This document shows, in pieces, positions 11,215-56,161 of a stretch of 64,000 nucleotides of DNA. The DNA comes from Eledone cirrhosa (Eukaryota). A model generated the notes under the pieces. It was not told the origin of the DNA, ran no database searches, and saw only the letters and a list, made by a program, of their open reading frames with translations. The position numbers were made by a program, and so were the translations under genes. The stretch's first letter is position 1, and each line of letters starts with the position of its first letter. The stretch spans positions 117,614,001 through 117,678,000 of the forward strand of contig OZ024745.1 in the NCBI GenBank assembly GCA_964016885.1. Direction: 5' to 3'.

Positions 11215-12790
11215 TCTTCTCCCACTTATTCCTGAGAGGGCCGTGGGGGCAGAGTCCTCAAACACTCCTTCCAGCAGGTCCTGTTAGAAGCAACGGTCTC
11301 CAACTGTTCCGACTGGATCCCCAAGCAAGACCAGCCAAACTTATGGATGTTGTCCATACTCCTGGGTCTCCTGCTGGTTGGTTTTGCCCGTAAAATCTGT
11401 CCAGTGATTCTTTCTTGAGACATTCTAACCACATGCCCATAGTATCGGAGCTGTGATTTCTCAATTCAGACAAGTAGCAGCTCTACCTGGAGTGACTCTC
11501 TGATCTTCAAGCTACGCACTCTATCGAGAAATGTTATCCCAAAGACCCTTCGGAGGAACCCCATTTCTGTTGCTTGTATTCACAGTCATATTCTTTCAGT
11601 CATTACCTAAATTTCACGACCATATGTAAGGGTTGGCACGAATACCGAATTGAAGATAGTGAGTTTGGTTTTTATGCCTACCTCCCTTCTTCTGATTACT
11701 GAATGCTGAAGCTGGTGCATTGCACCAACTCCTCCAATTCTTGAACTTAATTCAACCTCCTGCCTTCCATCACTTGTGAACACAAGATACTTAAACTTCT
11801 CTACCTGCTTCAGTGGAACTCCATTCACATGTAGAGTGCATTGCACAGGCTTCCTTGAAAGGACTAGTGTCTCAGTTTTCACAGCATTGATTTTCTTTTC
11901 AGCCATGCAGCACTCGGCATCAAACCTATTGAGTGCAAGTTGGAGATCACCTTCTGTCAAGTTAAGTAATATCATATCATCTGCAAATACCAACCGACTA
12001 ATTTTACACTCGCCAATCATGATACCACTTCCAACCCGGCTGTGCATGTAAATAATGAACAGAAGAAGTGATAGAACACACCCTTGGCAGAGTCCGACTC
12101 CCTCATTGAATTGTTTTGATTTAGCACCATTTATCCGAACACAAATACTCGGACATTCATATAGAGACATCGGAGCAGCAAGGAACTAACCATCAATCCC
12201 ATACTCATTGCCCAGCCTTCTACAGCAGGGCCTAAGGAATGTGGTTGTATGCTTTTTCAAGGTAGACAAAACAAGAATATACATCTTGGCCATACTCTCA
12301 CAATTTCTCGAATACTTGCCGCAGTGTAAATATTTGGTCGGCTGTGCTGTGTCGGGTAAAAACAAAACCACACTGTTCATCAACTAGCTTGGACTCGACA
12401 ATCTCCCTGCATCTCTTTTCCAGACACTTAACATAGACTTTACCGGAGAGACTTAACAAGAAGATCCCTCTGTAATTGGGACAATCTCTCTTGTCTCCCT
12501 TTTTGAAAATTGGGCTTATCACTCCCGATTGTCATTGCCTAGGTCCCTTTCCAGAGACAATAACAAAATTATAGACCTCTGTCTCTGATTCCCCTTATAC
12601 CATGTATATTTATGGATGTCTCTGGGCTGTAAAAAGGTGTTCATAATAGAGAGTTCATTGCTAGAACAGAAGTCCAGCAAGGCCTCTCCGTTCGTATTTA
12701 GACCGGGGTCGCCATTCTTTCCAGTCACTCCTTTCCATGTCAGGTGGTCAGTGCCAACTTGTACATTGAAGTCTCCCATCAGGATATATG
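11215..12790 (-). mobile_element. Decayed RTE-clade LINE (APE endonuclease + RT fragments, internal deletion, frameshifts)
   Basis: ORF pieces ILMGDFNVQVG..NGEALLDFC..KYTW (endonuclease); PIFKKGDKRDCPNYRGI, QGCVLSLLLF, FADD, VEKFKYL (RT). Confidence 0.92.
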
Positions 12791-15149: not shown

Positions 15150-17946
15150 TCTATGAAATAAAATCACCCATTTTAAAGGTTTCCAATTTAAATTAAAATC
15201 TCTCAATGTAATTTTATATAGGAACTTTACATTAAGTTTCTATCAACAACTGACAATAAAAAAACTGAAAAAACTCTGGGAAACTAAATCAGAACAACCT
15301 GCCATCCCCTGCATATAATCAAAGACTGGAATCAAGGTACAAATTGTTGTCCTTGAATGCACGTAGTCTATGCAATAAGATTCATCTTTTTGACTCCTAC
15401 GTCAAAAGTATCAACCGTGACTTCATTACAGTCACGGAAACTTGGGCACATTCCTTACTCTGTGATGGGGTTTTCAGCATAACTGGCTACAACTTGTTTC
15501 GAAAAGACTGCATTAATCGTCGTGGTGGTGCTGTAATGGTCTACGTTCGGTCAAATTTGTCGGCAAATCCTTGTGTTGATTTGAACCAATCGCAGCAAGA
15601 AGTATTTTTTCTGCGATATACGTATGACCATGTCAACACTGCTACTTGGAGTTGTTTACCATCCCCCAAATTACCATCAGGACACTCAACTTTGTGATAT
15701 CTTTGCTGCCAGGAAAACAGCCACTTATGTTTTTATTGCAGGGGACTTCAATCACCCTGAGATTGACTGGGAAACCTTTTGTTGGCCGCCAAGTGCAGAT
15801 GACTTCCTTGAGCTAGTGATGGACTCGAATTGGTCCCAAGCAGTCACCTCCCCAACAAGAGGTGACAACACTTTGGACCTACTCTTCACCACTACTCCTG
15901 AAACGGTCATTAGTGTTACTGCTGAGGAACCTTTAGGTGACTCTGATCATGCTATGATCATTGCCAATCTATCCCTCAAGGGCAGTAACAAAAACCACAA
16001 CCATCTCCAAACTGCTCACTTTGACTGAAATAAAGCAGACTGGAACTGTTACTGCACCGAGTTGCAGCGTCCAAACTGGCTTGAGTTCTACAACTCTGGA
16101 GATGTCAATACTGTATTCCAGAACATCCTGAGCTCAATATAGACAGCATGTGCAGCATCGGTGCCACGTAAGCAGAAAAAACATCCCAAAAGTGCAATTG
16201 GGGAGACTGCAGCAGTCCGTCTTGCCAGAAAAGAACGTCGCAATGCTGAACGTGAGTACAAACTGCATAAATCAGATATCAATAGGAAGAGGCAAAATAA
16301 ATCATCCAACCATCTCAAACAGGTCACAAAAAAGGCAGTACTTCAATTTGAGTAGCGCATAGCAACCAGCCCTGACAGTAAGGTGTTCTGGAGGTATGTT
16401 CACTCAAAGCAGAGGCCTCACTCTCCAGTTGGTCCTCTTCGCAATCCCAACACAAGCCAGGTTACTGATGACCCCAAGGAATATGCAGAGCTCATTGCTG
16501 AATGCTATGCAGGCATTTTCACTATTGAAGGCCAGAGTGTACCGTCTCCACCACCTATGAGACTGGATTCTATTACAACTATGGAATTTACACCTGCAAT
16601 GCTGCGACATCACCTTAAAAATAAATGCAACCATGACTTTGCTAAAGCTTTCAATTCTGTGCCACACAAAAGGCTTATGGCAAAACTCTCTGCAATGGGT
16701 GTGAAGGATGATCTTTTTAACTGGTTGAAGTCCTTCATGCTCAATCGAAGAGAGGTAGTCATGGTTCTAGGACAGCATTCCTCACCATATGAGATGTCAT
16801 CTGGTGTACCACAGGGATCTGTTCTTGGCCCCCTTTTGTTTGTGGCATATATTAATGACATAGATGCCAACTTAAAGAATGCCACAGTACTGAAATATGC
16901 AGATGACATCAAGCTGTACCTTGAGATAAAAAGGACAGATCCTGAACACTATAGATCTTGCCTGCAATCTGACCTGGACACAATGCAACAATGGATCACA
17001 GACTGGCAACTCAAGCTGGCTGTGGACAAGTACACCACCATGCATTTTGGGAGTAAAACCCCAGCGTCCACATACTCCCTCCACAACACTAATATCAAGA
17101 AGTCTTCTTGTGAACGTGACCTGGGTATTATGGTCAGCAGCGATTTGCGTTGGATGAAACACGTCTCTAAAATTGTCAAGAAGGCCGAGGGTGTCTTAGC
17201 ATCACTCAGCAAGACCTTTGTCAGCCGCTCTCCAGCTATCTATTTAAATCTGTATATAGCTATGGTGCGGCCACACTTATAATTTGCATCACCAGTCTGG
17301 AACCCCTATCTTGCTCAGAATATTGACCACCTGGAAACTGTTCAGAGACGTGCAACCAAGCGAATACCCTCCATCAGGCATCTACCATACTCTGAGCGCC
17401 TTGCTTCCGTGGGCATGGATACATTGAAGCTCCGACGCCTGGCAACTGACTTGGTAAACACCCACAAAATTATTAACCATCTTACCAACAACAACCCTGA
17501 GTACCTTTTTGACTTCCATGTGTCTACAAAGTCAGGAAACAGCACAGCTCCCATGACTTTCAGAAACATTTTTTCACGCTCAGAGTTGCTGAAGCATGGA
17601 ACAAACTACCTGCATCAGTTATTAGCTGTTTAGACACTGCATCCTTTAAAACCTCCATGCTTCCTGAGATTCGCCAACACTACACCTAATGTTCCCCCTC
17701 CTTACACATACACACATGTATATCATGACTCATACACTATTCACTTCCCTGACATTTGTATATTATTCTATGTACTATACATGCACCTTTGACAAGTTGT
17801 AGTGCACCTGAGCACTTTACACAATAATTTCTTTATTATTATTATTATCTCAGTAATGAAATAATTAATAATTTTAGTAAATCCCTCAAAATTCTTCATT
17901 AATTAATTTGTATATTTCATTAGAAATACAGTGATGAGAGGGTTAA
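15150..17946 (-). mobile_element. piggyBac-type MITE family 2, split in two by a CR1 insertion (arms ~15150-15244 and ~17849-17946)
   Basis: The two arms joined match the reverse complement of the intact copy at 58165-58410; ends GAGAGGG-TTAA at 17946. Confidence 0.75.
15245..17848 (+). mobile_element. Decayed CR1-clade LINE (APE endonuclease + RT, internal deletion, (ATT)n tail)
   Basis: LNARSL..TETW..GYNLFRKD..GG; GDFNHPEIDW; PTRGDNTLDL..SDH; DFAKAFNSVPH, SGVPQGSVLGPLLF, YADD, RPHL; tail TTATTATTATTAT at ~17834-17848. Confidence 0.95.
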
Positions 17947-23024: not shown

Positions 23025-24780
23025 TATATATAAAAGAATATTAAAAAAAGATTACAAATGAAAAAGAAATTATACAAGGATGGAAATATGCAAAATAAAG
23101 ATAAAAACAAAATTAAGTAATGAAAAGATGGGGGTGGGTAAAGAAGGGCAGATCTGGCTGTATGGGAAAGTAGAGGAAAGGACAATAAATGCCATAAATG
23201 AGAAGAAAAGGAGGGAAAAAGCAAGGACTCTTGGGCCACAGAAGAGAGGGTGGGGAAGGAGAAAGGATTATGGGCTCTGTGCCTAGGGCAGGGCTGTGTT
23301 TGGGCTGTGCCCCACGGACAAAACGGCAAAGGCATTTCTGTGGACAATGACCAGTGACACCTGCTGCAACAGCCACCCCACTTTATGTTCTTCAGATGGG
23401 CTGTTGACGTTCCAATTTTGTGGAGGAACTGAGCAGTACGGGGTCTCAAGACATCTGAGGTCTCGACGATGGCCAGTACGAAGAGGAAGCGACCAGACAA
23501 GCCCTGGTATTTGTTGGTCTCCCTTTCTTCTGCATTGTGGGATGCAATACTGGGGTTTGTGGTCGAAGCAACTAAGATGGAGGCAGAGAACTTGTGACGT
23601 CCCAGATGAGGGATCTACCTCGTTTGAAAGGGAAGATGGTAATTCTATCAAGGCGTTTACCGTCTCTGTGGTCAAGGCCTGCAGTTGTGATGGGAAGCCA
23701 GCTGCGTCCAGGCTCCTTGCCATTATGTCGTTGAGAACGGCATGACAGGGGAACCAGCCGAATGACAAGATAGTGGGTGCAGGCTCCACAACATAATTTG
23801 CGAGTGCACTTGTCAACAAGAAGGGTACCGGTTAATGAAGAGGGCACTGAATTGAACCACGCACCACTGTTTGGCTGTGAAACGGATCGGAGGCATGTGA
23901 AGCAGTATTGGTCGAAGCCAGATTCAGTCTGCCTGAAGGTAGACCTGCACTTGATGTTCCAGTTTTGTTGGACATTTATATACTGGGGCTGGAGAGGCCT
24001 TCGCCTGTCCAGTCGGCCAGAGCCTGTCTAGTTCTTGAGCCATGCTAGGTTCTGCGGTATTGCTGAGAACCTCACTGATGAAGTAGGCCGGTAGTGCCAG
24101 ATCTGAAGCAGATCGGCGGTTGTGGCCACTGAACCTCACTGGGAGCTTCTCTGGTTGCCAGCCAGCACAATCGAAATTAACATTGCAAATGAGTTCCTCA
24201 CAGCATCGGATGGTGGCGTTGAGTTCACTGAGGTGATCTGCGTGGGGATGACAAGATACACCGTGCAGTGTGAACAAGAATTTGGGGAGGGCGAAGCAGT
24301 TCCTCAAAAGTAAAAATGCCAAGTGAACGTCAATGAGAGGCAGCCTCTCTGCCATTCACGACAGGTCTGCATGTTTGGTATCCAGATTCTCTCTTGTGGC
24401 TTTCGAGAGAATTGGAGAGCCAAGAGTGCAGGTGGCATCCTTGGGTGTTAGCTGAGCACTGGACAAGGTAGGATGGATGCTGAATACGGCATTGTGGAAT
24501 TTGGCCTCTCCGTACCTAATGTTTATCATCTTGAACTTGGATGGGTTGATCTCGAGTCTGAGGAGCTTTAGAGCTGGGATGATTAGCCAAAAGTACTGAA
24601 CTACTGTCTCATCCAAGCCACCCAGGGTCGTGTCGTCTAGGTACCAATTGTTGAAGGGCGACTGGACAGAGCAGGCAACGTTGTCAACTGTCAGCGCAAA
24701 GAGGAGTAAGCTAAGTGGGCCTCCTTGCTGAACACCTGTAGCGGAAGTGACCTTGTTGTCAGGGGCATTCATAGAGTAGA
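23025..24780 (-). mobile_element. Decayed CRE-clade non-LTR retrotransposon (RT + restriction-like endonuclease), 5'-truncated
   Basis: SATGVQQGGPLS, WYLDD, ALPK, LPVRFSG..SASDLALPAYF, HAVLNDIMARSL, DGKRLD.ITIFPFKRGRSLIWDVT, FV.AIVETS. Confidence 0.85.
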
Positions 24781-24834
24781 AGGGGGAGACAGCCAGTGAG
24801 AGTGAGGGGAGGCAGAACAAGAAAAAGAGAGTCC

Positions 24835-25025
24835 TGTGCATCTTTATGCAGCCCTTATCCTTCATACACTTCACATGTCCATACCACTGCAATCTCCTTC
24901 CTTGTACACTGCATCTGATCGCTCTTATACCCAGTTTCTCTCTCACTTTCTTGACACTTCACCAATCATCTATATTAACTATTGCACATCCATTGAAGCA
25001 TACAAGCTTCATTTCTTTCCACGTT
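24835..25025 (-). mobile_element. RTE LINE fragment
   Basis: REKLGIRAIRCSVQGRRLQWYGHV. Confidence 0.8.
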
Positions 25026-27744: not shown

Positions 27745-28640
27745 TGTTAGAGGTGCCTACTGACTAGGTTTCGCTTTGTACTTAGGCAAGGCGGGTCTTC
27801 TGTATTACTGCATAGCACCAAAGATCTCGGTCCAGTGACATTGTCTTGGAGAGGTGTAAGTGTGTGAGGTCGGAATTTATCAAGTCGTCCCAGGTTTTTC
27901 TGGGTCTGCCTACTCCGTGGCTACCGTCTATTTTTATCGCCCTGCACTTTTTTATACGGCTGTCGTCTTTCATGCGCATGATATGACCGTACCAACGTAG
28001 TCTTCTCTCGGGTAAACAACATCTTATTCCTAATTTCTCACTTAGTTCGTTTATGCTTTGCTGTTCACGTATATTACTATTACACATCCAGCGGAGCATG
28101 CAAGCTTTGTTTCTCTCCAGTCTGCGTATATCCTCTGCACACAATGCCCAGGTCTCACTGCCATGTAACATTGCTGTTCGTATGCAGGCATCATACAGCC
28201 TGCCTTTCATTTTTAGAGAGAACAGTTTAGCGGCCAATAGTGGTATAAGCTCTCTGAACTTTTTCCATCCCATTCTGACTCTAGCTACTGTACTTTCAGA
28301 GCACTCTCCCCCACTGCTGATTTTGTCACCCAGGTAACGGAAGGTGTTCACTATTTATATAGAACCATCTGTGCAATGGAATGAGCTAGTATTCTGTGGG
28401 CACTTGCTGCTACTTATTGCACCAGAGCACAGGCCACATATAAAATCTATATTCTTAGTTAGCTTACCTGTGATCCCACTACATCTTTTATGCACCCATA
28501 CTTTGCATTTGGGACATAAAATGGAGTTTCTGCCTACTCCTTTCCTACACACTGAGCATGGCCATTTCCCAGATGGGACCGGTGCCCTATTTTCCTTCCT
28601 ACAAACTAGAACTTTAGTCTTAATTTTCAAAATTTTGAAT
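27745..28640 (-). mobile_element. RTE LINE 3' part with PHD-like Cys cluster after the RT
   Basis: KTKVL..WPCSVCRKGVGRNSILCPKCKVWVHKRCSG..CGLC; FRYLG..WKKFREL..GSETW..LRWYGH..GRPRKTW. Confidence 0.92.
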
Positions 28641-33911: not shown

Positions 33912-34745
33912 TAATAATAATAATAATGAAATTATTGTGTACAGTGCTCAGGTGCACTACAACTCATCAAAGGTGCATGTATAGTACATAGAATAATGTA
34001 CAAATGTCAGGAAAATAAACAGTGTATGAGTCATGATATAATAACAATAACGAAATATTGTGCACAGTGCCCAGGTGCACCACAACTCATCAAAAAAGTG
34101 CATGTACAGTACATAGGGCAATGCACAAACATCAGTAAAATGAACAGTGCACGAGTCATGATACACACGTGTGCATGTGTATGGAAGGGGTACATCAGGT
34201 GTAGTTTTGGCGTATTTTGGGAAGCATGAGTGTCTTAAAGGATGCAGTGTCTCGGCAGCTAACAATTGACGCAGGCAGTTTGTTCCATGCTTCAGCAACT
34301 CTGAGCGTGAAAAAATGTCTGCGAAAGTCATGGGAGCTGTGCTGTTTTCTTATCTTGTAGGCATGTCCACGTGTGTTAGACACATGGAGATCAAAGAGGC
34401 GCTCAGGGTTGCAGTTGGCGAGATGGTTAAAAACTTTGTGGGTATTCACCAAGTCCATTGCCAGACGTCGGAGCTTCAATGAATCCATGCCCAGGGAAGC
34501 AAGGCGTTCAGAGTATGGTAGGTGTCTGATGGAGGGTATGCGCTTGGTTGCACGTCTCTGAACAGTTTCCAGGAGGTCAATGTTCCGAGCAAAATAGGGG
34601 TTCCAGACTGATGATGCGAATTCCAAGTGTGGTCGCACCAAAGCTGTATACAGTTTTAAATAGATGGCTGGAGAGCGGCTAACAAAGGTCTTGCTGAGTG
34701 ATGCCAAGACACCCTCGGCCTTCTTGACAATCTTAGAGACATGCT
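33912..34745 (-). mobile_element. CR1 LINE 3' fragment (same family as 15245-17848) with duplicated 3' UTR
   Basis: KHVSKIVKKAEG..RPHLEFASSVWNPY..QRRATK..TRGH..RRHFF..WNKLP; (TAA)n on + strand at ~33912-33927. Confidence 0.93.
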
Positions 34746-35209
34746 TACATATATACACACACACATGAAAAGGACTGATGCTAGTGCTGTGAAATCTTGC
34801 GTCCATTAATTTCAACTTTTTATTAATAGCTGCATTGTTTTTTTCCAGGGAACATGTTGAAAAATAAACCTCATTTGGTCATTCCATAAGAGTATCTTGG
34901 TCTGCCTATGAACTGATCAGCCAAACCCCATATATATATATAATGTGTGTATTTTGTTTGTAATCAACAAAAAAAGCAGTCTCGTAGCTATTTTACTTTT
35001 ATTCTTTTAATGCTAAGATTTTGTGGCTAAATAAAATATCAAATATTTTCCTCTCTTGAAAATATTTGAAAACCTATAATACCAAACCATCTGAAACCAC
35101 CCTGGTTTTATGATACAAAACTGATCATTTTAAAGTGTTTATCCTTATACTAAAACATTCCATCATAATTTTATTCCAGAAATTCTTGTTAAATAACATT
35201 CTAAATAAG

Positions 35210-35470
35210 GCAACTAATTGTCAGAGTAATTAGAACATTGGATAGAATGCTTTGTGAGTTCAAATCCCACCAAGGTTAACTTTGACTTTCTTCCTTTCAA
35301 GGTTGATGAAAAAATGTACCAGTCTAGTACTGGGGTTGATTCTACCTCTATATCAGATCTGGAGAGGGATGGGTTCTGCCAGGTTTTAAGTGCTCAGGAA
35401 ATACTGTATGCCTCTACAGCACCCCTACAACTCTATCAGGAGTTATGGAACCATACTACCAACGTTCTAA
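35210..35470 (+). mobile_element. Decayed tRNA-derived SINE (long form)
   Basis: GAGTTCAAATCCCACCAAGGTTAACTTTG core. Confidence 0.75.
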
Positions 35471-35694
35471 ATATCAGCTAACTAATGAAAAACTGAGTTA
35501 TTTCATTAAATTCCTCCAAATGTTGGGTTATTTTCAAAATGAATTCAAGCATATGGATAATGAAAGTGTTAAACCATTGGTGAAACTATGCCAGTCAATC
35601 AAATGTTACATCCTGTGGACATTTAGTAGTTTCATTGACTCCTTCCAATTCATCCAGGATATTTTATTTACATTTGTTAATGTTGATGATCTAC

Positions 35695-36118
35695 AAACTA
35701 TCTTCAATTTGGTGTTAGTGCCAGTCCTTACCTATTGTCATGAATCTTGGGTAATGACTGAAAGAATATGATCGCGAATAAAATAGGTTTCCTTGGAAAG
35801 GTCGTTGGAGTAACATTACTTGATAGAGTGCTTAGCTCGGAGGTCGGTGAGTCACTCTTGGTAGAACTGTGATCTCCAAATTGAGAGATCACAGTTCCAG
35901 TACTATGGGCATGTCAGAATGTCTTGGGGAAAGAATTGTTGGACAGATTTTACAGGCAAAACCAAATGGCAGGAGAGCCAGGCATAGACCCTGAGCAAGA
36001 TGGTTTGATAACATCCATGAGTTTGGTTGGTCCCCTTTGAACTACAATCTGATCAATTAGCGACAGTTGCTTTGGCGAAGCATGCTTGAAGACTTCCAGG
36101 AATATGTGGGTGAAGAAG
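35695..36118 (+). mobile_element. RTE LINE 3' fragment (same family as 11215-12790)
   Basis: TIFNLVLVPVLTYCHESWVMTER; 3' end homologous to 11215-11450. Confidence 0.8.
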
Positions 36119-36119
36119 A

Positions 36120-36325
36120 TTAACCCTTTAGCATTTACATTACTCTATATATACTATTATGTTTTCATGGTAAAGGCTTTACCTCACATAATATCGAATC
36201 TATGAGATTTTGATATTACTTATTTTGAGAACCATACCTTAACATCAGTATGAGTGGCTGGTTACAGCCAGTTTGAACAGAAAGAGTTGAGAGAATTCTG
36301 GCCAGTTTAAATGCTAGAGGGTTAA
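36120..36325. mobile_element. piggyBac-type MITE family 1
   Basis: TTAA-CCCTTTAGCATTTA...TAAATGCTAGAGGG-TTAA. Confidence 0.9.
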
Positions 36326-36770
36326 CATATCTTACACTCTGCCAATCTCAATAATAAAAGTAGCCATTATTACTTGCTTAATATTTACATATGAAAAGGA
36401 AAAAGATTAAATGGCAAATGTAGGGGAAAGTTATAGGATGAAAGAAACAATCGAGATGAAGAATGGTAAAGCCTGGGGACTGTCACAGATAGTCACTGAA
36501 ATACTAAAAGTATTGGGAGAATGGGAGCAGAATTAGTTAACCAGGTAATACCCAATGATTAGTGCACTCTCATTAACTGGTTTCTTGAAGACAGATATTC
36601 CATATTTTTCTGATGAATGAAGACACATAAATATGTCTTCAAGAAACTACTGGTAAATGAAATAATTATCTTATGTTGTTTATTACATAACTAAAAAGCT
36701 CTGTAGCCTACATAGAACACTCTCTTTTCCTTTACCTTTCCTACGGAAATACTTTATTTATATATATATA

Positions 36771-37192
36771 TATAGTGACCCACATTCCGAGGGCTCATGG
36801 ATACATTCTCCGTGCATTGTTTGGCTCAGTTCAGCCAATTGCTGCCAGCGTAGGAGAATGTATCTCAACTTCCGCCCCAGAGGGAAAAATTCCCCGCAGC
36901 AATTCATAAATCTCTCTCTTGCTGCTTGGACTCTGAAAGGTCAACACACACTCATGTAACGGTGAGAATTTCACTTTGGCCTATCGGCCTCCTTAGGCCT
37001 TAGCACAATGCCACATTCACTTCTCAACTCTTAACAATGTTTGTTCCTTACTTTGACATGTCCACTCAACTTAACTCTTTGTAATTAGTTGTAAATAAAA
37101 CATATAAAAATGTTAACAAAGACTTTACGACTAATTCCACAAGCTTTCACTAATCTCACGTTCAACAAAACCACACCTTTCCTGTTACTACA
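36771..37192 (+). mobile_element. Solo LTR
   Basis: T(A/G)TAGTGAC...GTTACTACA inverted termini, AATAAA near 37094; 5' 130 nt homologous to 47860, 48293 and (reverse) 60609. Confidence 0.7.
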
Positions 37193-37217
37193 AATACACA
37201 TCATTATAATTCTTCTT

Positions 37218-37402
37218 GGTGGATTGGCAGAATCGGTAGAGGGTTGGACGCCATGCTTTGACGCATAGAGTTACGGCCCTTGTCATTCTGAGTTCAAATC
37301 CCGCCGAGGTTAACTTTGCCTTTCATCCTGACGGGGTCGATAAAATAAAGTACCAGTAATACACTGGGATAATTGCTGGCCTTGTGCCAAAAGTAGAAAC
37401 AA
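37218..37402 (+). mobile_element. Young tRNA-derived SINE (short form) with long TSD
   Basis: ATTATAATTCTTCTTGGTG at 37203-37221 and 37402-37420. Confidence 0.92.
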
Positions 37403-37699
37403 TTATAATTCTTCTTGGTGATATTATTAGTTTTCTGCTAAATATATATATATATTAGTTTTGCGAGGTTTTTGATATGATATGAAACCGTGTGTCGAAA
37501 CAAATATTGTTATACTTGGGGAGGGTCATATTGTTGTAATAATATTGCCAGAATTAATAACAGAACACACTCATTGTTTGGTTGGTTTTCGTTTCTGTAT
37601 CTTTTATATCAGTTAATTTAATTTATTCGGTCCTCAATGTTACCATTGACTGACCAACGGTCAAAAATACAGATACAATATAGACACAAACACATATAT

Positions 37700-37752
37700 A
37701 TAGTCTAACAAAGTTCTTTCGTTGCACATCTGCAACATCGTCAGTGGTGCTA
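37700..37752 (-). ncRNA. Hammerhead-ribozyme-like motif (type I, minimal)
   Basis: Minus strand ACCA-CUGACGA-U-GUUGCA-gaug-UGCAAC-GAAA-GAACUU-UG. Confidence 0.55.
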
Positions 37753-38240
37753 TTATGTTTCCTCCTGTTGTATTGTATGCCTACGCCATCTTTATTTATT
37801 TATATTGTTTTCTCTGCGCATGCGTTTGCGTGTGTGTTCGTGTTTGGGTGACTGTGTATTGGTTTTTGTATTCTATTTTAGTTTACTAGTGTGTGTTTAT
37901 ATGTGTTTGTTGTTATTGTGCTTGTGTATGTATTTATTTATTTATTTATACTTCTCTTGGGTCAGTATTGTTTGTTTGGGTGTTGTTGCATATATATATA
38001 TTTGTTTTGTGATGTTTTTAATATGAAATCGTGTGTCGAAACAAATATTGTTATACTTGGGGAGGGTCATATTGTTGTAATAATATTGCCAGAAATAATA
38101 ACAGAACACACTCACTGTTTGGTTGGTTTTCGTTTCTGTATCTTCTATATCTCCACAGTTAATTCACTCAGTCCTCAATGTTTACCATTGACTGACCAAC
38201 GGTCAAAAATACAGATATAAACACATATATAACATATATA

Positions 38241-38288
38241 TAGTCTCACAAAGTTCTTTCGTTGCACATCTGCAACATCATCAGTGGT
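38241..38288 (-). ncRNA. Hammerhead-ribozyme-like motif (type I, minimal)
   Basis: Minus strand ACCA-CUGAUGA-U-GUUGCA-gaug-UGCAAC-GAAA-GAACUU-UG. Confidence 0.55.
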
Positions 38289-39129
38289 ATATATATATAT
38301 ATATATATAGCAGGGGTTCCCAACTTTTTTTCTATAGTAAATATTCAGAAGCATACCACAAAGTTTGTTACTGGTTCGTAAACTGACATTTTATGATGTA
38401 GCAAAAAAAAACACAACTAAAGGGAGGTAACAAATAACTGACTTATGCGGTGGTTGCTGATTACTTTTCAAAAGATCACACACACAATTCCTCCCTTTTT
38501 TTTTCCTTTCTTTCCCTACCCTTTTCTCTTTTCATCCGCATGTCCAAACCTCAACCTCGCACACGGCCCACCTATATCTTCGCTCACACCGTTAGCTGCC
38601 CGATGTACTGGTCGGATTATTACTGGTGGTTGTAAATAAATAGAGATGCCACCATTTTAGGTGGTGGTGGCATGCACCTAAGAGACCTGCGTGTTGGGAC
38701 GACTTTGTGACAACAGGTCAACCTTCGACCTCTCGTTCTCCACCAACTTTGGCCTACACAAGGGGAGTTAACTTCCATCTCCTATCGCCCCCCACCGTTG
38801 GATTCGAACAGAACTAATCCTGATCACTTCACCACTCCTACAATAGTTAGCCCACTCTCAGCACTACTCCAAATCCCAAAGTTAGAGATAATGTTTACCC
38901 TGCCTCTATTGGTACCCCCCCCCCCCCCCACACACACACACTACCTCACCCGAATTCCAATGTTGGCCCTCTAACATCGGTTGCTACCAGTTCACCACAT
39001 GTTTATGTTCTCTGTATCCACACAAGTCAGTACCTGAAGACAATTAAATGTCACCTGTATTGCTAAAGCTACCACTTTAACTCCGACATACTTTATATGG
39101 AAGTCCTATGCTTCGACAACCAGCTTTCT

Positions 39130-40490
39130 ACTGAAGACTTTGCTGCAGCCCTCCATCATTCATCAACTGAATCCCAAAGGGGGCTCCGAGTAGTTTTGCA
39201 CATGCTCTCTCTAAACTGTTGAAAAACGTTTGTTTATCCAACAATACATCTGATTGGCAGAAACTGATTTTGTTCCCTCTCATCTCTCCACGTGCACAAT
39301 GTGAATTCCGGTTCCCTCACATCTCTCAAGCAACAGTTTCACCTCAGCTTGGAATCGGGCTGTGTCTACCAACAGGCCACCGACAAACTTACAAAATGCT
39401 GTTAATGCCAAATTTAGCGAATTTGACATTAAAGGAGCTGCCGTCTCCTCTCTTGCACAGTGTAACTCAGATTCTCTTGAGTGACTGAAAGAGAAGCACC
39501 CATCAGTCCCTCTGGATGACCAATTATACTGTCCTGAACCACCAGAATACTCAACACCGGTCTACATCACTGATAACATCAGGAAGGTGATTGCATCCTA
39601 TCCCATTGGTTCTCGTGTGGGGATTGACGGTCTACGACCTCAGCACCTCAAGAATAGTAACTCCTTATCAGCCAGTGATGCCAGACTTGAGCTCTTGGAA
39701 AGTCTGAGTCTGACTCAGTTTGTGAATCAATTCTCTTCAGAGAACGTTCTCTCCTATATCCGTCGATTATTCTTTGGTGCAAAACTATTCGGACTCACAA
39801 AGCTGAATGGAGACCTATTGCGGTTGGCTGCACCCTTCGTCGTCTTACTGCAAAGGTATGTTTGTTATTGGTCTCTGATTCACTGTCGGTGGATTTTCTC
39901 CCCATCTAGTTAGCGGTGGGTACCAGCGATTTGCCCAAGCAATTTGGAGGCCTTGGCCTACGTAAATGTTCGTCCCTCTCGCTCCTTTGTTTCAATTCCT
40001 CCACCCTAGTGGGTAACATCCTCTTCTTTCCAGCATGGACTAGTTCCAACAGGGAGATGGATGAAGTTCTTCTACGATGGAGAGAGCTAGGTTTGTCTGT
40101 TCCTGACACAATAGAGGACCAACAGGCAGAGTTTGAGACAACATATATTCGAAGGCCACCTTTAACTCTCTCTTCTACTAGTCAGATCAGTCCTCAAGGT
40201 GCCACCTACTGTCTGCTAGGTGACTGGGTTGATGCCCTACACATGGTCAACATCAGTGGTCTACTCAGTTTGGACGAGCTTTGAGTCTCCATTGCCCTCA
40301 GAGTGGGAGCCGATGTCTGTATGGGACTGAAATTTCAGTGTGGTAGGCTCATCGACTCCAGACACTCACGGTCTATCTTGCTGTCTAAATGCCAGTTGCT
40401 TCGCACGTCACACTGAGCTAAACCCCATCAAGAGGGCTTTGGCTCGGGCCAATATCCCCTCAATTTTGAAACCGTTTGGGTTTAAAGAAG
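39130..40490 (+). mobile_element. Heavily decayed CRE-clade retrotransposon with RT core deleted
   Basis: GIDGLRPQHLK, FFGAKLFGLTK.NG, LPKQFGGLGLR, GDWVDAL, then SIALRVG and RHTELN..IKRALARA. Confidence 0.75.
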
Positions 40491-40695
40491 GCGACAACCA
40501 TTTCTTGATTTGTAACTAAACAATGCTCATATTTCCTCCAGATTTATTCAGACTTCTTAGGCTCTTTGCGAAACGAATTTTAGAAATATTTTGTAATAGT
40601 TTTAAATTGTTACGGCTTTTAATACATTAACAATTTACTCAGGGTAATGTTTTTTTATGCGCGGAAGACGTAAATAGAAGGAAAAAGGAAAGAAA

Positions 40696-42245
40696 TCTGT
40701 AATCTATAATATAAAGCTGACGGCCGTATGTATGTAACAAACTTTTCGCCAAACGGCTAGACCAAACAGCACCAAATTTGCACCATAGATGTAACCTTTT
40801 CCAAGTAAAAAAGTGAGGGTATTTTTGTCTACTGAATTTTGTTAAAAGATTAAAGACATTATTTAAATATTCACTTCTTTAAAATTTCAAATGTAAACAC
40901 TTCCGGTTATGCGACATTCCTCACTCTTTCTTAGTTTGTCTGTTTAGATCAGAGATTCTCAAACTTTTGGGGCCACCGCCCCCCTCACGGCCTCGTAATA
41001 CCCTCAGCGCCCCCAACCATCAGTCTGTGATGACACATCCAAACCTTACCAGCAGAGAAAGTGGACATTAAACAATGATGGTGATGATGTTAGTTTATCA
41101 TTAGTAACAGAGATGTAAAAAGAATGTGATTTTGCCAATAAGAATAAAGACATCTATGAGATTGTGTAGAATCTACACAATCTCATACATATCTATATAA
41201 ATGCTTAATATACATATGCAATATATTTGTAAAAAATATAGTTGTTTAAAATTTAAACAATAAATAGCTTTTTTTTTTTTTTTTTTAATACTACACTGTC
41301 TCCCCCCGATATCAAAGCACCGCCCCCAGGGTGGCGGTACTGCCCACTTTGGGAAACAATGGTTTAGATAGATACATAGCTATGACGTCGCGCCCTTATA
41401 ATATGTCTCTGTATGTCTGGCTGTCTGCATTAGATACATAGCTATGACGTCGCACAACATTCCTCTCTTTTTCTTAGTCTGTCTTTTTAGATAGATACAT
41501 GGCTATAACGTCGCGCCCTTATAATATGTCTCCATATGTCTGGCTGTCTGCATTAGATAACGTTTTTCGTAATAATTACTTCTACGTTCACAGATTGATT
41601 TTTTCTAGTTTCAGAAGATCCCGTTAAGGGTGAAAGCAGCGATTCTTTGCTTAAACTTTAATCTGTTATTTTAATATATATATTCGTGTATAGATATGTT
41701 TGCATACACAAAAACAAAATATAAACAGACCTATTTATTTCACGAAAGCACAGACGGCTTATCGTCATTGTTACTGCCGATATGCCACCTAAAAAGTCCC
41801 ATCCTGGCCGCAAGATCAGATTTTCCAGAAGAAAAAATGTTACTAGAGCATGAGAGTCTGAAGATGATCATGAACGTCGCCTTCAACAGATGAGGACTCA
41901 AGCGAGAGCCATTCGATCAGCCCAGTCTCAAGAGCAGCGCCAGTCTCGCCTTCAGCAACTGAGGTCCCGTGCAGAAGGCAGGAGAGCAACACAGACAGAA
42001 CAAGCCAGATTGGAGCAGGTGAGTTCACAAGCTGATTGCATCCACATTGCATTACAGCATCAGTGTGCCATACAGGTCCTTGCATAACAGTCCGATTTTT
42101 AACTATTCAAACCCAACATCAGAGCACGTTAATCCCCCCCCCCTCTCGCTGACTTGAGAGGGAGTGCGGTATCTTTGCACTGGAGTGGAGGGAGGATTCC
42201 TGAAAAGATAAAATGCCGGTATACCTAGCCGGACGGGACAGGTAG
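40696..42245 (+). mobile_element. Non-autonomous Helitron with a RepHel N-terminal STPR-like repeat remnant (41781-42020)
   Basis: A|TC..TCTATAATATAAA 5' end; MPPKK..ESEDDHERRLQQMR..QSQEQRQSRLQQLR (23-aa periodicity, in-frame stop); 3' CCGG..CCGG hairpin then GTAG|T (degenerate CTAG). Confidence 0.7.
40950..41361. mobile_element. hAT (Charlie-like) MITE with 8-bp TSD GTTTAGAT, inside the Helitron
   Basis: CAGAGATTCTCAAA...TTTGGGAAACAATG; GTTTAGAT at 40942-40949 and 41362-41369. Confidence 0.85.
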
Positions 42246-42419
42246 TAACTGATATTTTTGCTGGGAAAAGTTGTATGTTGTGGTATTTATGCTAACTATA
42301 TATTACTAATTGATAAAAAGACTTGTTTTATTAGGAATTGATATTTGCCTTTTTGTCCGTGAAATATTCGGGCAAATTCTATTTCTTGTTTTATTTACTG
42401 TTGTATAAAAAGAGATATA

Positions 42420-42605
42420 ATAATTGTTTCTACTTTTGGCACAAGGCCAGCAAATACCCAGTGCATTACTGGTATTTTATTTTATCGACCCCGTAAGGAT
42501 GAAAGGTTAACCTCGGCGGGATTTGAACTCAGATCATAAAGGGCCGTAATTCTATGCTAAAAAGCATGGTGTCCGACTGACTCTCTACCGATACTGCCAA
42601 TCCAA
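42420..42605 (-). mobile_element. tRNA-derived SINE (short form)
   Basis: Reverse complement of the 19376-19560 family. Confidence 0.9.
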
Positions 42606-47269: not shown

Positions 47270-49440
47270 GTAGAAATTGTGGCCTTGGTTGAGAGGAGAC
47301 AAGTGGATGTATGTTGTGTTGAAGAGGTGAGATGGATGGGTGCCTCAGCAATACTATTCACCAGAAAACAATATAGATACAAGCTATTCTGGATAGGAAA
47401 TGATAATTGGGTATGTGGGGTAAGCAGCTGAATTGTAGATACATAAGGTATTGTAGTAGGAGTAAGTGACAGAATTATCAAGCTCAGAATAATCATAGGC
47501 AATAGGATGACAACAATTATCTCTACCTATGCACGAAAAGCAGGACTGAGTAAAGAACATAAGGACCGTTTCTATGTGGAACTCTTACAGACAACTTCAG
47601 TTGCAGATGATAGAGGCCTCATCATCTTGGCAGGCGACTTCGATGGACATGTTGTGCAGCACCTGGCTACACTGGGGTACATGGTGGCTATGGATACGGC
47701 TCAAGAAATGAAGAGAGAGAGAGTGAGGCTCCTGGAATTCTGTGATGCTAATGAACTAACCATTTGCAACATTAATTTCAGGAAACTGGCCAGCCATCTG
47801 ATCACCTACCAATCTGGCAAACACACAAACCAGATTGACTTCTTGTTAGAAAACAGGATTGTAATGACCTACATTCTGAAGGCTCTTGAATACATTCTCC
47901 ATATGTTGTTTAGCTCAGTTCAGCCAGTCGCTACCAGCGCAGGGAGATGCATTTTAACTTCCGCCCCAAGGGAAAAATTTTCGAATTAAATGTTCCATAA
48001 AAACAAAAAATTAGAAGTGGTATTTTTAAAAAGAGAACACACAAGCTTTCTTGTATTGTATCAGCACCATGTAAAAACCTTTTTGTTGATAACAGCACAA
48101 CACAGTTTTCTGTCACGTTTAAATAGCCAAACAGCTAGTCATTTGACACAACGGCTCAACACGGCCCTTAGCGCCTCATTTTTCTTCTTGCATGAATTCT
48201 TTTGTTCAATTTTGTCATTGATGTGCTCTCTTTCAGCGTTTTTCCTGCTAATTCAATCTTATTTATTGCCTTCTAGGCTAAATAGGGGGTATTGTAGTGA
48301 CCTACATTCTGAGGGCTCTTGAATACATTCTCCATACGTTGTTTGGCTCAGTTCAGCCAATCACTACCAGCGTATGGAGATGCATTTCGACTTCCGCCCT
48401 AAGGGAAAAATTCCCGCTTCTTTCAAAAAACTATCTCTCTTTGCATCTCGGCACCGGAAGGTAAACATCTCTTGACTTTGCTCCTCAAATATTTCAAAAT
48501 GTAACTACTGGAATTCTTCGCACAGTGGCTTCTAACTTCAGCCATCGGTCTGCGTATTCTTTTACAGCATCTTAATTTGTTTTGTTTCCTTTCTTATGAC
48601 ATGTCCTCACTGCTAACTCAACTTCTCATCTTTGTAAATAAATTATATATATAAAAACATTGTAATGCTCTATGATGATATTTGCCACAAAATTCCCTTG
48701 GACTGTTTCGGTTACTCTCTGTGATACAATACGCAAACAAATATTAACATTCATAACACAACCTATGTCCATATATCTCTCTCCTATTAACTCTCAACTA
48801 AATAACTTCTTCTAAAGGATAAACAAATGGTTATAAATGTTAAGTCCTTCCCTAAGGAGGAAAGTATGAAAGCTCAAGGTCGTTTCAGTTAAGTATAGGT
48901 TTAGAAAGACTCTACAGGATGCATATGATGAGAAGGAAGATGAGTTAGATACATATAGGAGGACATTTGGAAGTTCTTACGTTATAACCTATTATAGACT
49001 ACTGATGAGATTTGTGGCTTGAGCAAAGTACTGGCTAGTCAGATGGTGACCTGGTGATGAAACAACACAGTGGATAAAGCCATTAAGGATAAGAGACAGG
49101 TGTAGAAAGAATGAAAAAATGGGGGTAATAGAAACCAGTACAAGGTAGCCAAGAGAGGAGCTGGATGTCATGTATATATAGTACACCAAGAGGCTGAAAG
49201 AAAGAGGCTTGCCAATGTCTTATGGCATGAAGATAAAAGATGAAAAATGTTCCACATTGCAAGGCAGTGTGTAAGTGTGAATCAAAATATTATTGAGGAA
49301 AAGTGTGATTGAAATGATGCTGGTACATTTAGAATCACTCATAAGAACGAGGCCTGGAATTGCCACTATGAAAGGTTGATGAATGTGGAGAATGAGGGTG
49401 AGGAAGGGAGACAAACCCCAACAGAAGGACCAGCAATCTT
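47270..49440 (+). mobile_element. Decayed RTE LINE endonuclease/linker region, interrupted by an LTR insertion at 47860-48815
   Basis: VDVCCVEEVRW, ISTYA, ILAGDFDGHV, LLEFCDANEL, ITYQSG..QIDF; resumes after 48820. Confidence 0.82.
47860..48815 (+). mobile_element. LTR-derived insertion with 5-bp TSD AGGAT, containing a second LTR start at 48293
   Basis: TGTAATGACCTACATTC at 47860 and TGTAGTGACCTACATTC at 48293; AGGAT at 47855-47859 and 48816-48820. Confidence 0.7.
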
Positions 49441-51290: not shown

Positions 51291-51828
51291 GAATAAATAA
51301 TGAATGAATATTACATAATTTATCTACTAAATTTCGTAAACAACAATAATTTCGTAAAAATAAATAATTTAAAATTGACTTCTTTTCAAAGATGCACTTC
51401 CGGTATATCGTTGCCCCCACCATCACTTCAACTACCATATATATAGAAAGAGAGAGTGTGTGATATCAACACTTCCGGTGGCGGTCACTTAAATAAACAT
51501 ACTAATTTTCTCCTAATGCAGTTTATATATAATATCGTCTTTTTTTAATGTATCATGGATTACGTTACTGATTACATAAGAGATGTAACAGTCTTCATTC
51601 AATTTCTGTTTATATTGTCAATTACGATTTTAGTTGATGTATCATATCTACATGTATATATACTTGCATATAATATCAATATACACACTACACACGATAG
51701 CAGAAAACCACCTGAAGGGTGGTGTTCTGCTAGTTTATATAAATGTATATCATTTGATAATTTAGCTGGCAATCAATGTTTATCCTTTATTGATCAACAG
51801 TTAAAAATATAAATATAGATATAGTTTT

Positions 51829-51871
51829 TCAAAGTTCTTTCATCACACATATCTGTGACATCCTCAGTGAT
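51829..51871 (-). ncRNA. Hammerhead-ribozyme-like motif in a diverged copy of the 37.5-38.3 kb repeat
   Basis: Minus strand AUCA-CUGAGGA-U-GUCACA-gauaug-UGUGAU-GAAA-GAACUU-UGA; compensatory stem-II changes relative to the other two copies. Confidence 0.55.
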
Positions 51872-52039
51872 TATCATGCGTCCATGTTTCCTCCTGTTTT
51901 GTTCCTGTTGCCACTACTTGAATTGTTGTTGTCGTCATTGATGATGATGATTATAGTATATTACGCTATTACATGTTCCAGCTGAGGTCTGTTGATATTA
52001 TTAAAAATAATTTTATAATTACAATGCTTAAAGATTATA

Positions 52040-52339: not shown

Positions 52340-52928
52340 ATTTTCTCACTCAGATTCTAACATCTTTCCCTACAGGATTCACATATTTTCTCACTCAGAT
52401 TCTCACTTCTTTCCCTACAGGATTCACATATTTTCTCACTCAGATTCTCACTTCTTTCCCTACAGGATTCCCATATTTTCTCACTCAGATTCTAACATCT
52501 TTCCCTACAGGATTCCCATATTTTCTCACTCAGATTCTCACTTCTTTCCCTACAGGATTCACATATTTTCTCACTCAGATTCTAACATCTTTCCCTACAG
52601 GATTCACATATTTTCTCACTCAGATTCTCACTTCTTTCCCTACAGGATTCCCATATTTTCTCACTCAGATTCTCACTTCTTTCCCTACAGGATTCCCATA
52701 TTTTCTCACTCAGATTCTCACTTCTTTCCCTACAGGATTCCCATATTTTCTCACTCAGATTCTCACTTCTTTCCCTACAGGATTCACATATTTTCTCACT
52801 CAGATTCTAACATCTTTCCCTACAGGATTCCCATATTTTCTCACTCAGATTCTCACTTCTTTCCCTACAGGATTCACATATTTTCTCACTCAGATTCTAA
52901 CTCCTCTCCCTAGAGGACTCACATATTT
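52340..52928. repeat. 45-bp minisatellite, ~13 copies, intronic
   Basis: TTTTCTCACTCAGATTCT(AACA/CACT)TCTTTCCCTACAGGATTC(A/C)CATA. Confidence 0.97.
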
Positions 52929-53764: not shown

Positions 53765-54200
53765 CTTCTTACGCTAAACTCTGCCAGTTGCAGACTGCAC
53801 ATTAACATGTGATATCTCTCTCCACAAAGTTCGATCACCAACAGCAGAGTTCAAAAAGCACAGATCAAGTCCAGTCCATAAGTTGACATTGTCAAGCCAT
53901 CGTTTTGGCTGCCGACCTCTGCTTCTCTTACCAGCCAACCTTCCTTCACACCACGAGTTGATCTTTTTTATGTGACCGTATAGTTTGAGTACACTTGACT
54001 TGACAATTGATGTAATTAGTCTAAGTTTGGTAATGTTGAGCAGCTCACTGATACAGATACAGTTGCTGAGCCACTTGCCAGTCATAAGTCTCATGATATG
54101 GTTCTGGAATGTAGAGGGCTTCGGAAGTGACCTTGTCGTCCAATTAACACAGTCTGGTAGCATGTAAGTATCAAAAAGGCTAATAGAACTCTTTGTGTCA
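53765..54200 (-). mobile_element. RTE-like LINE 3' fragment
   Basis: LKLYGHIK..EGRLAGKRSRGRQPKRWLDNV..DRTLWR. Confidence 0.8.
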
Positions 54201-54666
54201 ATGCATGACAACCTCCCTAATATTGGTGATCTACACAATAAATGCACCCAGTAAACACTGTAAAGTGTTTGGTGATATGAAGGGCATCTAGCTATGGAAA
54301 GGTTGCCAAACAAAGAGTCAGGAGGACTCTTCAGCTGTTTCAAAAACATGTTAGTGCCGGAGTTATGATGTACTTGGTAGAGTGTCAAAACTTATGTAAT
54401 TGAGGTGCAGACCCCAGCCCATCCTAGAGACTAGTAACTCCACTTGAGAACTGATTCAGTCTGTGAAAATCTATTCCACCCTTCATATCAGGGAAGATGA
54501 TGATAGATCCAGGGTGTCTTTCCTTGGTAGGAGGGATTTGAGGGAGATTTGGCTGCTATTTTTAGGTGAATGAGTGATTGTATAGAGGCTCTTTCTTTGG
54601 CTTATGTGTTTGGAAGTAAAATCCACTGCCATTGGCTTACTGTATGTTGAGGTAATATATGCATTG

Positions 54667-55195: not shown

Positions 55196-55370
55196 AACAC
55201 ACATTAAACATATCAAATACTGGTCATGAAGGATTTTTACCAAGAGAGAGAGTGTGTGTGTGGAAATAAAATATTGCATACAAATATTTAAACTTTTGTA
55301 TTTGTAAATATATATATAGTTATAAAGTGTGAAATTAACATATTTTTGTCTTTATAATTATGCATTTTAG

Positions 55371-56161
55371 GTGAACATGTTGAAGAAAGACAAAAGATTG
55401 CTATAGTTACAGGAGGAACTGGTGGCATAGGTTTTGCCACCTCCAGAGCTCTTGCTGCTCAAGGTTATAATTTAATTCTAGGTTACCTTTCTGACAGTGA
55501 AAACGCTAAGAAATGTGCACTGGAATTGAAGACAGATTTCAACATTGAGGTTCAGACAATTGGCAGAGATGTTAATGAAGAAGACACTATAAATTCCTAC
55601 TTTGAATATTTAGATAAATTGAATGGCAAACTTACAGCTATAATTCATACTTGTGGACTTTACTTACCTGATTCCATTTCCAAAAACCCTGATACCCATT
55701 TCACTACATTTGAAACATATGATTATTACCAGGATATTTATCCTAAATGTTTCATACGTTTAGTAGAAACTGGTATAAAATATATGGAAGATGGCAATGG
55801 TTATATAGTTTGTTTATCAAGCCCTGGCTGTAACCTTAACGACCATGTTAGACTAGGTTATATGATGCCAGGTACAGGAAAGTGTGTACTTGAGTATTTG
55901 TCTCGTCATTATGCCAAAATGTTAGCAAAGAGGAGAATAACTTGTAATTGTATAATTCCTGGCTACATACACACAAAACCTTGGAAACAGTTGGAGGAAA
56001 AGGTCGGCCGTGATATTGGTTGCATAAGAACTCCGATGGGTCGATGGGGTAAACCTGAAGAGATAGGAGATTTTATTTCATATTTATGTTCGTCTAAAGC
56101 AAGCTTTATAACCGGTGCTATTATCCCTATTGATGGAGGTTTGAGTCTCGGCTCACAATAA
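55371..56161 (+). CDS. Short-chain dehydrogenase/reductase, enoyl-ACP reductase (FabL/FabI)-like; complete catalytic domain in the terminal exon
   Basis: Acceptor TGCATTTTAG; IAIVTGGTGGIG Rossmann motif, IVCLSS, Y-x6-K (YMMPGTGK), NCIIPGYIHT, TPMGRWGKPEEIG..FITGAIIPIDGG; TAA at 56159-56161; AATAAA twice at ~56177-56189. Confidence 0.93.

Follow-up and report, generated by a model that had tools for sequence, protein, structure and literature searches.

Paired hammerhead motifs at an Eledone cirrhosa locus are the tail ends of two truncated Penelope-like elements

The stretch of DNA analysed here (the window) comprises 64,000 nt of the Eledone cirrhosa genome (GenBank assembly GCA_964016885.1, contig OZ024745.1, positions 117,614,001 to 117,678,000). 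Two direct repeats of ~290 nt each, copy A (38288-38001) and copy B (37748-37455), lie on its minus strand and share 91.3% identity over 286 ungapped columns. Read on that strand, both repeats open with the hammerhead motif CUGA(U/C)GA-U-GUUGCA-gaug-UGCAAC-GAAA-GAACUU, with cores at 38284-38251 and 37744-37711 spaced exactly 540 nt apart, and the ~70 nt at the far end of each encode the beginning of a Penelope-like element (PLE) ORF (ATG at 38070 and 37529; MTLPKY...). TA runs are found upstream of copy A, between copy A and the spacer, and downstream of copy B. About 290 nt of a subfamily-A element and about 535 nt of a subfamily-B element are kept in the window. The original prediction had described direct repeats of ~285 bp, each with both core boxes around a perfect 6-bp stem II and with the cores 540 nt apart, all of which was borne out. 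Two points were not borne out. The spacer, which it called non-coding, opens with the end of the PLE ORF, 13 codons and a stop (37987-37946), and the repeats are not two copies of one unit but belong to different subfamilies. The parts of the locus are as follows.

38289 to 38310, no strand: (TA)n tract bordering copy A on its 5' side (upstream on the minus strand) and probably belonging to the insertion target; read from the sequence, with TA runs ending most related copies.
38001 to 38288, minus strand: copy A, the 3' end (pLTR) left of a 5'-truncated Penelope-like element of subfamily A, with the truncation point 4 nt upstream of the hammerhead core; 15 of 15 A diagnostic states and 92-95% identity to 29 other loci.
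38246 to 38288, minus strand: minimal type I hammerhead A, core 38284-38251, with a 6-bp stem II, a helix I of 2 contiguous pairs and a cut predicted from the motif at 38251/38250.
38001 to 38070, minus strand: first codons of the PLE ORF within copy A, ATG at 38070, MTLPKYNNICFDTRFHIKN..., stopping at one of the family's fixed 3' ends; the same frame opens the intact ORFs of loci L189-L191.
37989 to 38000, no strand: short TA run from the 3' end of copy A to the start of the truncated copy B element; the junction is unique in the genome.
37946 to 37987, minus strand: end of the PLE ORF, 13 codons and the stop (NNTQTNNTDPREV*), beyond the GIY-YIG domain on its C-terminal side; the translation matches the ORF end ...EIELRRPRLNRKNEWNNNNTQTNNTDLREV of longer copies.
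37749 to 37945, minus strand: 3' UTR of the subfamily-B element, rich in A and C; it aligns colinearly with 29 other loci (query 313-859) at 85-92% identity.
37455 to 37748, minus strand: copy B pLTR, the 3' end of a subfamily-B Penelope-like element, with the ORF start ATG at 37529; 11 of 15 B states, 3 A-type, and 7 of 288 columns differing from the most frequent letters in subfamily B.
37706 to 37748, minus strand: minimal type I hammerhead B, core 37744-37711, with a cut predicted from the motif at 37711/37710.
37443 to 37454, no strand: (TA)n tract bordering copy B on its 3' side.

Position 38247 in hammerhead A is G, where most copies have U. At the 29 loci resembling copy A, the sequence upstream runs on into the 3' UTR. 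No target-site duplication could be read at the locus, where the flanks are TA tract, and Tandem Repeats Finder reported no array there among its 28 rows (longest period 500). A tblastn search of the window with three pieces of the ORF detected no PLE body. At the outer edges of the stack (37435-37455 and 38293-38313) the flanks form a short inverted repeat, with CTGCTA adjoining each TA run, and the pre-insertion site may therefore have been a small palindrome.

A loose hammerhead pattern matched the window four times at three sites against 0.98 expected, and 3 of 100 shuffles scored as high, which is weak evidence alone. When a tighter pattern was run against the whole 3.0-Gb genome, 7,909 exact matches were found against 7 for the reversed control; the motif therefore belongs to a large repeat family, and a chance motif is ruled out. 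The window copies have the features of the type (CUGANGA and GAAA boxes, a UH site, G10.1-C11.1 and an extra base after A9). An Rfam scan of positions 34000-42000 gave 8 matches at E<=5, with no hammerhead family among them, so the hammerhead call rests on motif, copy number and covariation. A pattern for a sister family, E, matched the genome 16,791 times (control, 1), and a young subfamily, Y, gave 5,530 exact 31-mer hammerhead matches; the three patterns do not overlap and together make 30,230 hammerhead matches in the genome.

Relative to window copy B, 23 copies of family C keep an identity of 0.97 in the core and 0.95 in GAAA, against 0.64 for the stem II letters and 0.60-0.77 for the flanks. 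The corresponding values for 24 copies of family E, chosen by their downstream flank alone, are 0.93, 0.92, 0.65 and 0.49-0.72. Across families the core boxes thus stand at 0.92-0.97 and the flanks at 0.49-0.77, the conservation above background on which the original prediction depended. Among 11 hand-picked representatives, helix II is 98.5% paired and includes two double-sided changes (UUGC/GCAA to UCAC/GUGA), and helix I is 70.9% paired, with its first two pairs invariant and the third mismatched in A/B (5 of 11). Of the checks proposed at the outset, the Rfam search came back without a hammerhead family and the covariation held: none of 500 shuffles reached the covariation score, although the underlying changes may be few evolutionary events. 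Because the core is kept across families and stem II covaries, the comparison indicates that the motif has been under selection in the active lineages. In family E, helix I comprises 4-5 contiguous pairs and position 17 is U or A; this sets the predicted cut in the register first proposed, after CUU. The weak stem I (CCA/UGU) and the extra U after A9, both given as caveats in the original prediction, are present and prove to be family traits, not decay.

A third hammerhead in the window (51867-51831, in a minus-strand copy at 51755-51910) belongs to the older family C and shows compensatory stem II changes and a helix I of 3 bp; this copy breaks off ~110 nt past the core. Family E (L127-L167) has G, not U, after A9, and an ORF about 45-65% identical to the A/B protein. 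At least three further recurring hammerhead-like motifs with other stems, CTGATGAAGGACTAGCGTC..., CTGAAGATTGCGAAAGCAT... and CTGACGATAGCTAATAAGCTT..., were seen (L008, L013, L015, L017, L023, L030, L036) and probably belong to other PLE families.

The element to which these ends belong was recovered from other loci. A DNA search was made with the whole region as query, and the best 40 of 6,051 candidates were scored, yielding 53 matches. All of these except the window itself start at query position 313 or later, which is the start of the spacer or beyond, and none of the others spans both repeats. Upstream of query position 313, 26 of the 29 other loci (a count made by eye, with one place represented twice among the 29) run into a common sequence, for more than 1,500 nt in some, and this sequence is an ORF ending ...RQIREASEIELRRPRLNRKNEWNNNNTQTNNTDLREV*. 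In a protein search, in which the best 150 of 37,116 candidates were scored, 9 of the 150 matches lie in open frames of 1,118-1,218 aa. All six loci that were fetched have a frame of 1,150-1,218 aa followed by the 3' UTR and hammerhead. Three of the six (L189-L191) are arranged pLTR-ORF-pLTR, with an upstream hammerhead 4,122-4,136 nt away and pLTR pairs that are 98.7-99.8% identical; the same arrangement occurs at L034 and L037. The parent element thus consists of a pLTR, one ORF of ~1,200 codons (telomerase-like reverse transcriptase (RT), CX4CX2C linker, C-terminal GIY-YIG) and a second pLTR, with its hammerheads ~4.1 kb apart. Both hammerhead motifs in the window are the tail ends of two broken Penelope-like copies, and the Penelope-type terminus, which had been offered as one of two alternatives, is the correct one: the spacer is the ORF end and 3' UTR of a PLE.

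The ORF contains DKSG and the RT motifs SMDVVSLYP, GAAIGVSIAG and YVDD, a linker HCTNRKCIICK (CX4CX2C, which fits CX2-5CxxC) at aa 1076 of L189 with its Cys conserved in homologs, and a C-terminal VYSIRC...C...YIGET...R...H...H...RQIREASEI, a GIY-YIG with CCHH that is also conserved in homologs. A structure model of the last 800 residues (RT-EN) has a pLDDT of 80; its top two fold matches are telomerase RTs (E 2.9e-7 and 8.3e-7, TM about 0.3), and no GIY-YIG structure is among its best 50. The C-terminal part matched Atlas clusters with a score of 0.97, with GIY-YIG on 13-18% of cluster members. Pfam gave nothing significant on four ORF pieces or on the intact ORF; across 13 alignment members it gave weak RVT_1 in two and GIY-YIG in one. 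Sequence searches of the PDB gave weak RT matches (best E 0.009). An Octopus vulgaris protein, 69% identical, is the sole named relative among 32 homologs, and a metagenome scan for loci encoding relatives confirmed none of 35 pattern matches. The ORF also carries an Asn-rich low-complexity insert of ~170 aa (aa about 240-405, before the RT; L189:1031-4657), far longer than in homologs.

Family copies share two or three fixed end points, which lie about 20, 70 and 85 nt inside the ORF and give way to TA runs; these end classes were read by inspection, an automatic tally having left 37 unparsed and 14 half-parsed of 101 copies. The 5' ends vary widely among copies. Subfamily Y (L188-L193; G000 C22, C2, C28, C1, C3, C9) has frames of 1,150-1,218 aa in copies that are 97-99% identical, and may still be active. 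One Y array (G000:C1:14381865-14395593) has four hammerheads head-to-tail with a period of 4,145-4,147 nt.

By its architecture, the parent groups with canonical EN+ PLEs of the Neptune/Nematis type. As described in excerpts of PMC8557442, these share with it one ORF with a telomerase-like RT and then a C-terminal GIY-YIG, a DKG-like motif (DKSG here), the CX4CX2C linker and two Cys inside the GIY-YIG core, as well as pLTRs with a hammerhead, 5' truncation, inverted 5' pieces and TA-microsatellite targets. The family differs from them in its N-terminal Asn-rich insert, and the window holds truncated ends only. Two other assignments were rejected: Naiad, whose EN is N-terminal and which is without canonical hammerheads (same excerpts), and an LTR retrotransposon or plant-type LTR retrozyme, since the hammerhead is type I, not type III, and the parent encodes RT-GIY-YIG.

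Metazoan PLE hammerheads have the consensus CUGANGAH-G..C-GAAAN-palindrome-NUH (Cervera and de la Pena 2014, PMC4209133, in excerpt). It includes an extra base after A9, and the extra U found here is therefore expected. Also shared with these minimal hammerheads are G10.1-C11.1, a 6-bp helix II and a rudimentary helix III, and the Drosophila virilis Penelope hammerhead likewise has a 2-bp helix I; by contrast, AGAACU here is not self-complementary and helix I is shorter than the consensus 3 bp. Molluscan minimal hammerheads are given for Lottia and Crassostrea in the same excerpt. Octopus Penelope expansions are on record, with ribozymes unmentioned in the part of that paper available (PMC8967140). 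Our literature search turned up no account of this PLE family's hammerhead in a cephalopod; Repbase or Dfam may already catalogue the family. PAc (Poseidon, Anolis carolinensis; PMC11167929) is alike in its fixed insertion 3' ends just inside the ORF 5' end with an optional short tail, and its endonuclease prefers AT-rich DNA; the targets here are also AT-rich. The PAc ORF starts at hammerhead stem II, whereas the ATG here is ~215 nt downstream of the core, and PAc cleavage has been shown to need the protein; here cleavage is predicted from the sequence.

The two repeats were typed in a 77-row alignment, in which 15 columns separate two sets; copy A is A-type in all 15, and copy B is B-type in 11 and A-type in 3, with the diagnostic columns defined on sets retrieved with the window copies as queries. 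A 38-row clade contains copy A without copy B (support 99/92, the bootstrap not settled). Identity by itself does not discriminate, as two same-subfamily pairs stand at 0.906 and 0.909 against 0.913 for the window pair. With copy A alone as query, 7 of 30 loci carry pieces of the same PLE ORF. A pattern for the junction A-TA-B has one match in the genome, which is the window locus. Among the first 100 matches listed for each of two hammerhead patterns, all on contig C1, none of 198 adjacent pairs are same-strand neighbours within 1.5 kb; opposite-strand neighbours within 6 kb number 7 and 17 among the 99 and 99 adjacent pairs. A second same-strand hammerhead within 1.5 kb was found at 2 of 30 sampled loci, the second hammerhead being of a different family, E, in both cases, and at 0 of 16 family-E loci. 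Since these two loci show mixed-family stacks, stacking of different PLE ends recurs, and a review states as much for PLEs in general (PMC6765202, in excerpt).

Taken together, the locus very probably consists of the 5'-truncated 3' ends of two PLEs of sister subfamilies that are likely to have inserted separately into the same (TA)n microsatellite. Truncation at the 5' end, partial tandems, tails and a microsatellite bias are all described for PLEs in the available parts of PMC8557442, PMC11167929 and PMC6765202. As in published PLE work, the GIY-YIG endonuclease would nick AT-rich DNA, and reverse transcription would start at fixed sites just inside the ORF 5' end, giving fixed 3' ends, and would stop early, giving random 5' ends. 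The spacing of 540 nt would then be the sum of two truncation lengths and without function.

A single event might also have produced the pair, if the RT, having copied a subfamily-B RNA, continued on a subfamily-A RNA by switching or re-priming; the result would still be a dead PLE relic and not a retrozyme. PLEs do form partial tandems, with a truncated copy in front of another one (PMC8557442, in excerpt), and exchange between subfamilies happens, since copy B has its 3 A-type states near the 3' end and L023 is a mosaic of A and B states (five of each). The two copies are of broadly similar age, with 13 of 285 (A) and 7 of 288 (B) differences from the commonest letters of their own subfamilies, where the medians are 2.4%. 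In true partial tandems, however, the upstream pLTR enters the ORF directly without a TA run, and here a TA run separates the pieces and copy A stops at a normal insertion end. Moreover, none of 16 loci with two pLTR pieces mixes A with B (at L004 the second piece is of subfamily Y). We consider such a chimera unlikely.

An assembly join between two unlinked PLE ends is extremely improbable. The junction does sit in a TA run between high-copy repeats and is bridged by no public contig, the contigs from four public runs being too fragmented to bridge it, but the run there is just ~12 nt long, the window lies deep within a very large contig, and comparable stacks occur at other loci.

The original prediction had favoured a retrozyme. 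On this reading, two cuts would free a non-autonomous unit of ~540 nt, which would circularise and be put back into the genome in tandem by PLE proteins. Two intact cores in one orientation 540 nt apart and a low G+C content (33%) would suit it, and a preprint traces animal retrozymes back to PLE pLTRs (10.64898/2026.07.22.740005, in excerpt). Animal retrozymes form families of tandem units with canonical type I hammerheads and highly self-paired circles of 170-400 nt (PMC7229834, in excerpt). From the parts of these two sources available, the locus shares with such non-LTR retrozymes tandem type I hammerheads a few hundred bases apart, low G+C and kinship with PLE pLTRs, but differs in having no family of repeated units, mixed subfamilies, an ORF remnant, a minimal hammerhead, no self-paired fold and a spacing of 540 nt. 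The junction occurs once in the genome, none of the 53 matches from the best 40 of 6,051 candidates spans both repeats apart from the window itself, the listed matches include no short tandem units with a hammerhead (0 of 198 adjacent pairs), and the family unit is ~4.1 kb. The repeats are of different subfamilies, and the 540-nt unit holds remnants of both the start and the end of the ORF. The 540-nt piece (44% A) folds no better than its shuffles (z -0.07 linear, with 49 of 100 shuffles as good, and -0.17 circular), its helix I is 2 bp long, and the core is sequestered in predicted folds. A retrozyme here is thus very unlikely; the piece is not a member of a retrozyme family and would be retrozyme-like only if both sites were cut in a read-through RNA. 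The locus is an ordinary feature and not a dedicated 540-base circular-RNA element.

Cleavage of the window copies themselves is predicted only and is doubtful. A helix I of 2 contiguous pairs is common to A, B and the young intact subfamily Y. In a dimer, the helix III formed by AGAACU has 4 of 6 pairs and two A-A mismatches (duplex +1.4 kcal/mol), and that formed by AGAUUU of subfamily Y has 6 of 6 pairs, G-U included (0.0 kcal/mol). In predicted folds the CUGANGA box pairs with the 3' strand and the core is sequestered, and the probability of local stem II in a 610-nt precursor is about 0.01. Published minimal PLE hammerheads cut weakly even as dimers (PMC4209133, in excerpt), and that of PAc cuts with its protein only and is dispensable for insertion in vitro (PMC11167929). 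Transcripts spanning both hammerheads would probably depend on read-through from the host, because copy A extends just 4 nt upstream of its core. The parent element's hammerhead would act on tandem read-through RNA and cut it after U17/A17, probably aided by a partner copy or by the element's protein.

A further reading takes the locus for a retrozyme before its amplification, and such stacks for the way in which retrozymes are born. PLEs inserting into each other's TA tails would give read-through RNA with the hammerheads of two subfamilies; hetero-dimer cutting could free an RNA of 540 nt containing the start of the ORF, the region in which PLEs initiate reverse transcription, and the young intact subfamily might mobilise this RNA, in a genome with ~30,000 hammerheads of this clan and a recently expanded autonomous helper. 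We give this little credence, and favour two stacked PLE ends.

Under that preferred reading, the window locus is one among thousands of dead PLE ends and matters little in itself. It does carry a warning that two hammerheads separated by a few hundred bases may reflect stacked insertions and not a retrozyme. The PLE clan offers a natural series, with helix I of 2 to 5 bp, helix III from mismatched to self-complementary, and a young subfamily with intact ORFs and near-identical pLTRs. This series suits the open question of whether PLE hammerheads must cleave, and whether a partner or the element's protein is needed, and the young intact subfamily Y is a better lead than the window locus.

Elsewhere in the window, a short interspersed repeat at 37222-37401, which we take to be SINE-like, is flanked by a 19-nt direct repeat (37203-37221 and 37402-37420), and more copies of it lie near 35252, 42410-42604, 51150 and 52100. 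Positions 1-7865 are a satellite array of 281 copies of a 28-nt unit with 96% matches. Fragments of LINE-like ORFs occur at 16356-17282, 24356-24958, 34195-34878, 11607-12185, 27782-28354, 47447-47989 and 53774-54391; RVT_1 was matched by the first (E 1.7e-24) and weakly by the second, and the others were judged by eye. An uninterrupted frame of 267 codons on the plus strand (55358-56161) encodes a short-chain dehydrogenase/reductase (Pfam adh_short_C2, E 1.6e-38) and is the sole host-like gene among window frames of at least 150 aa. A minisatellite at 52340-52928 has 13 copies of a 45-nt unit, and its long plus-strand open frames encode a repeated peptide.
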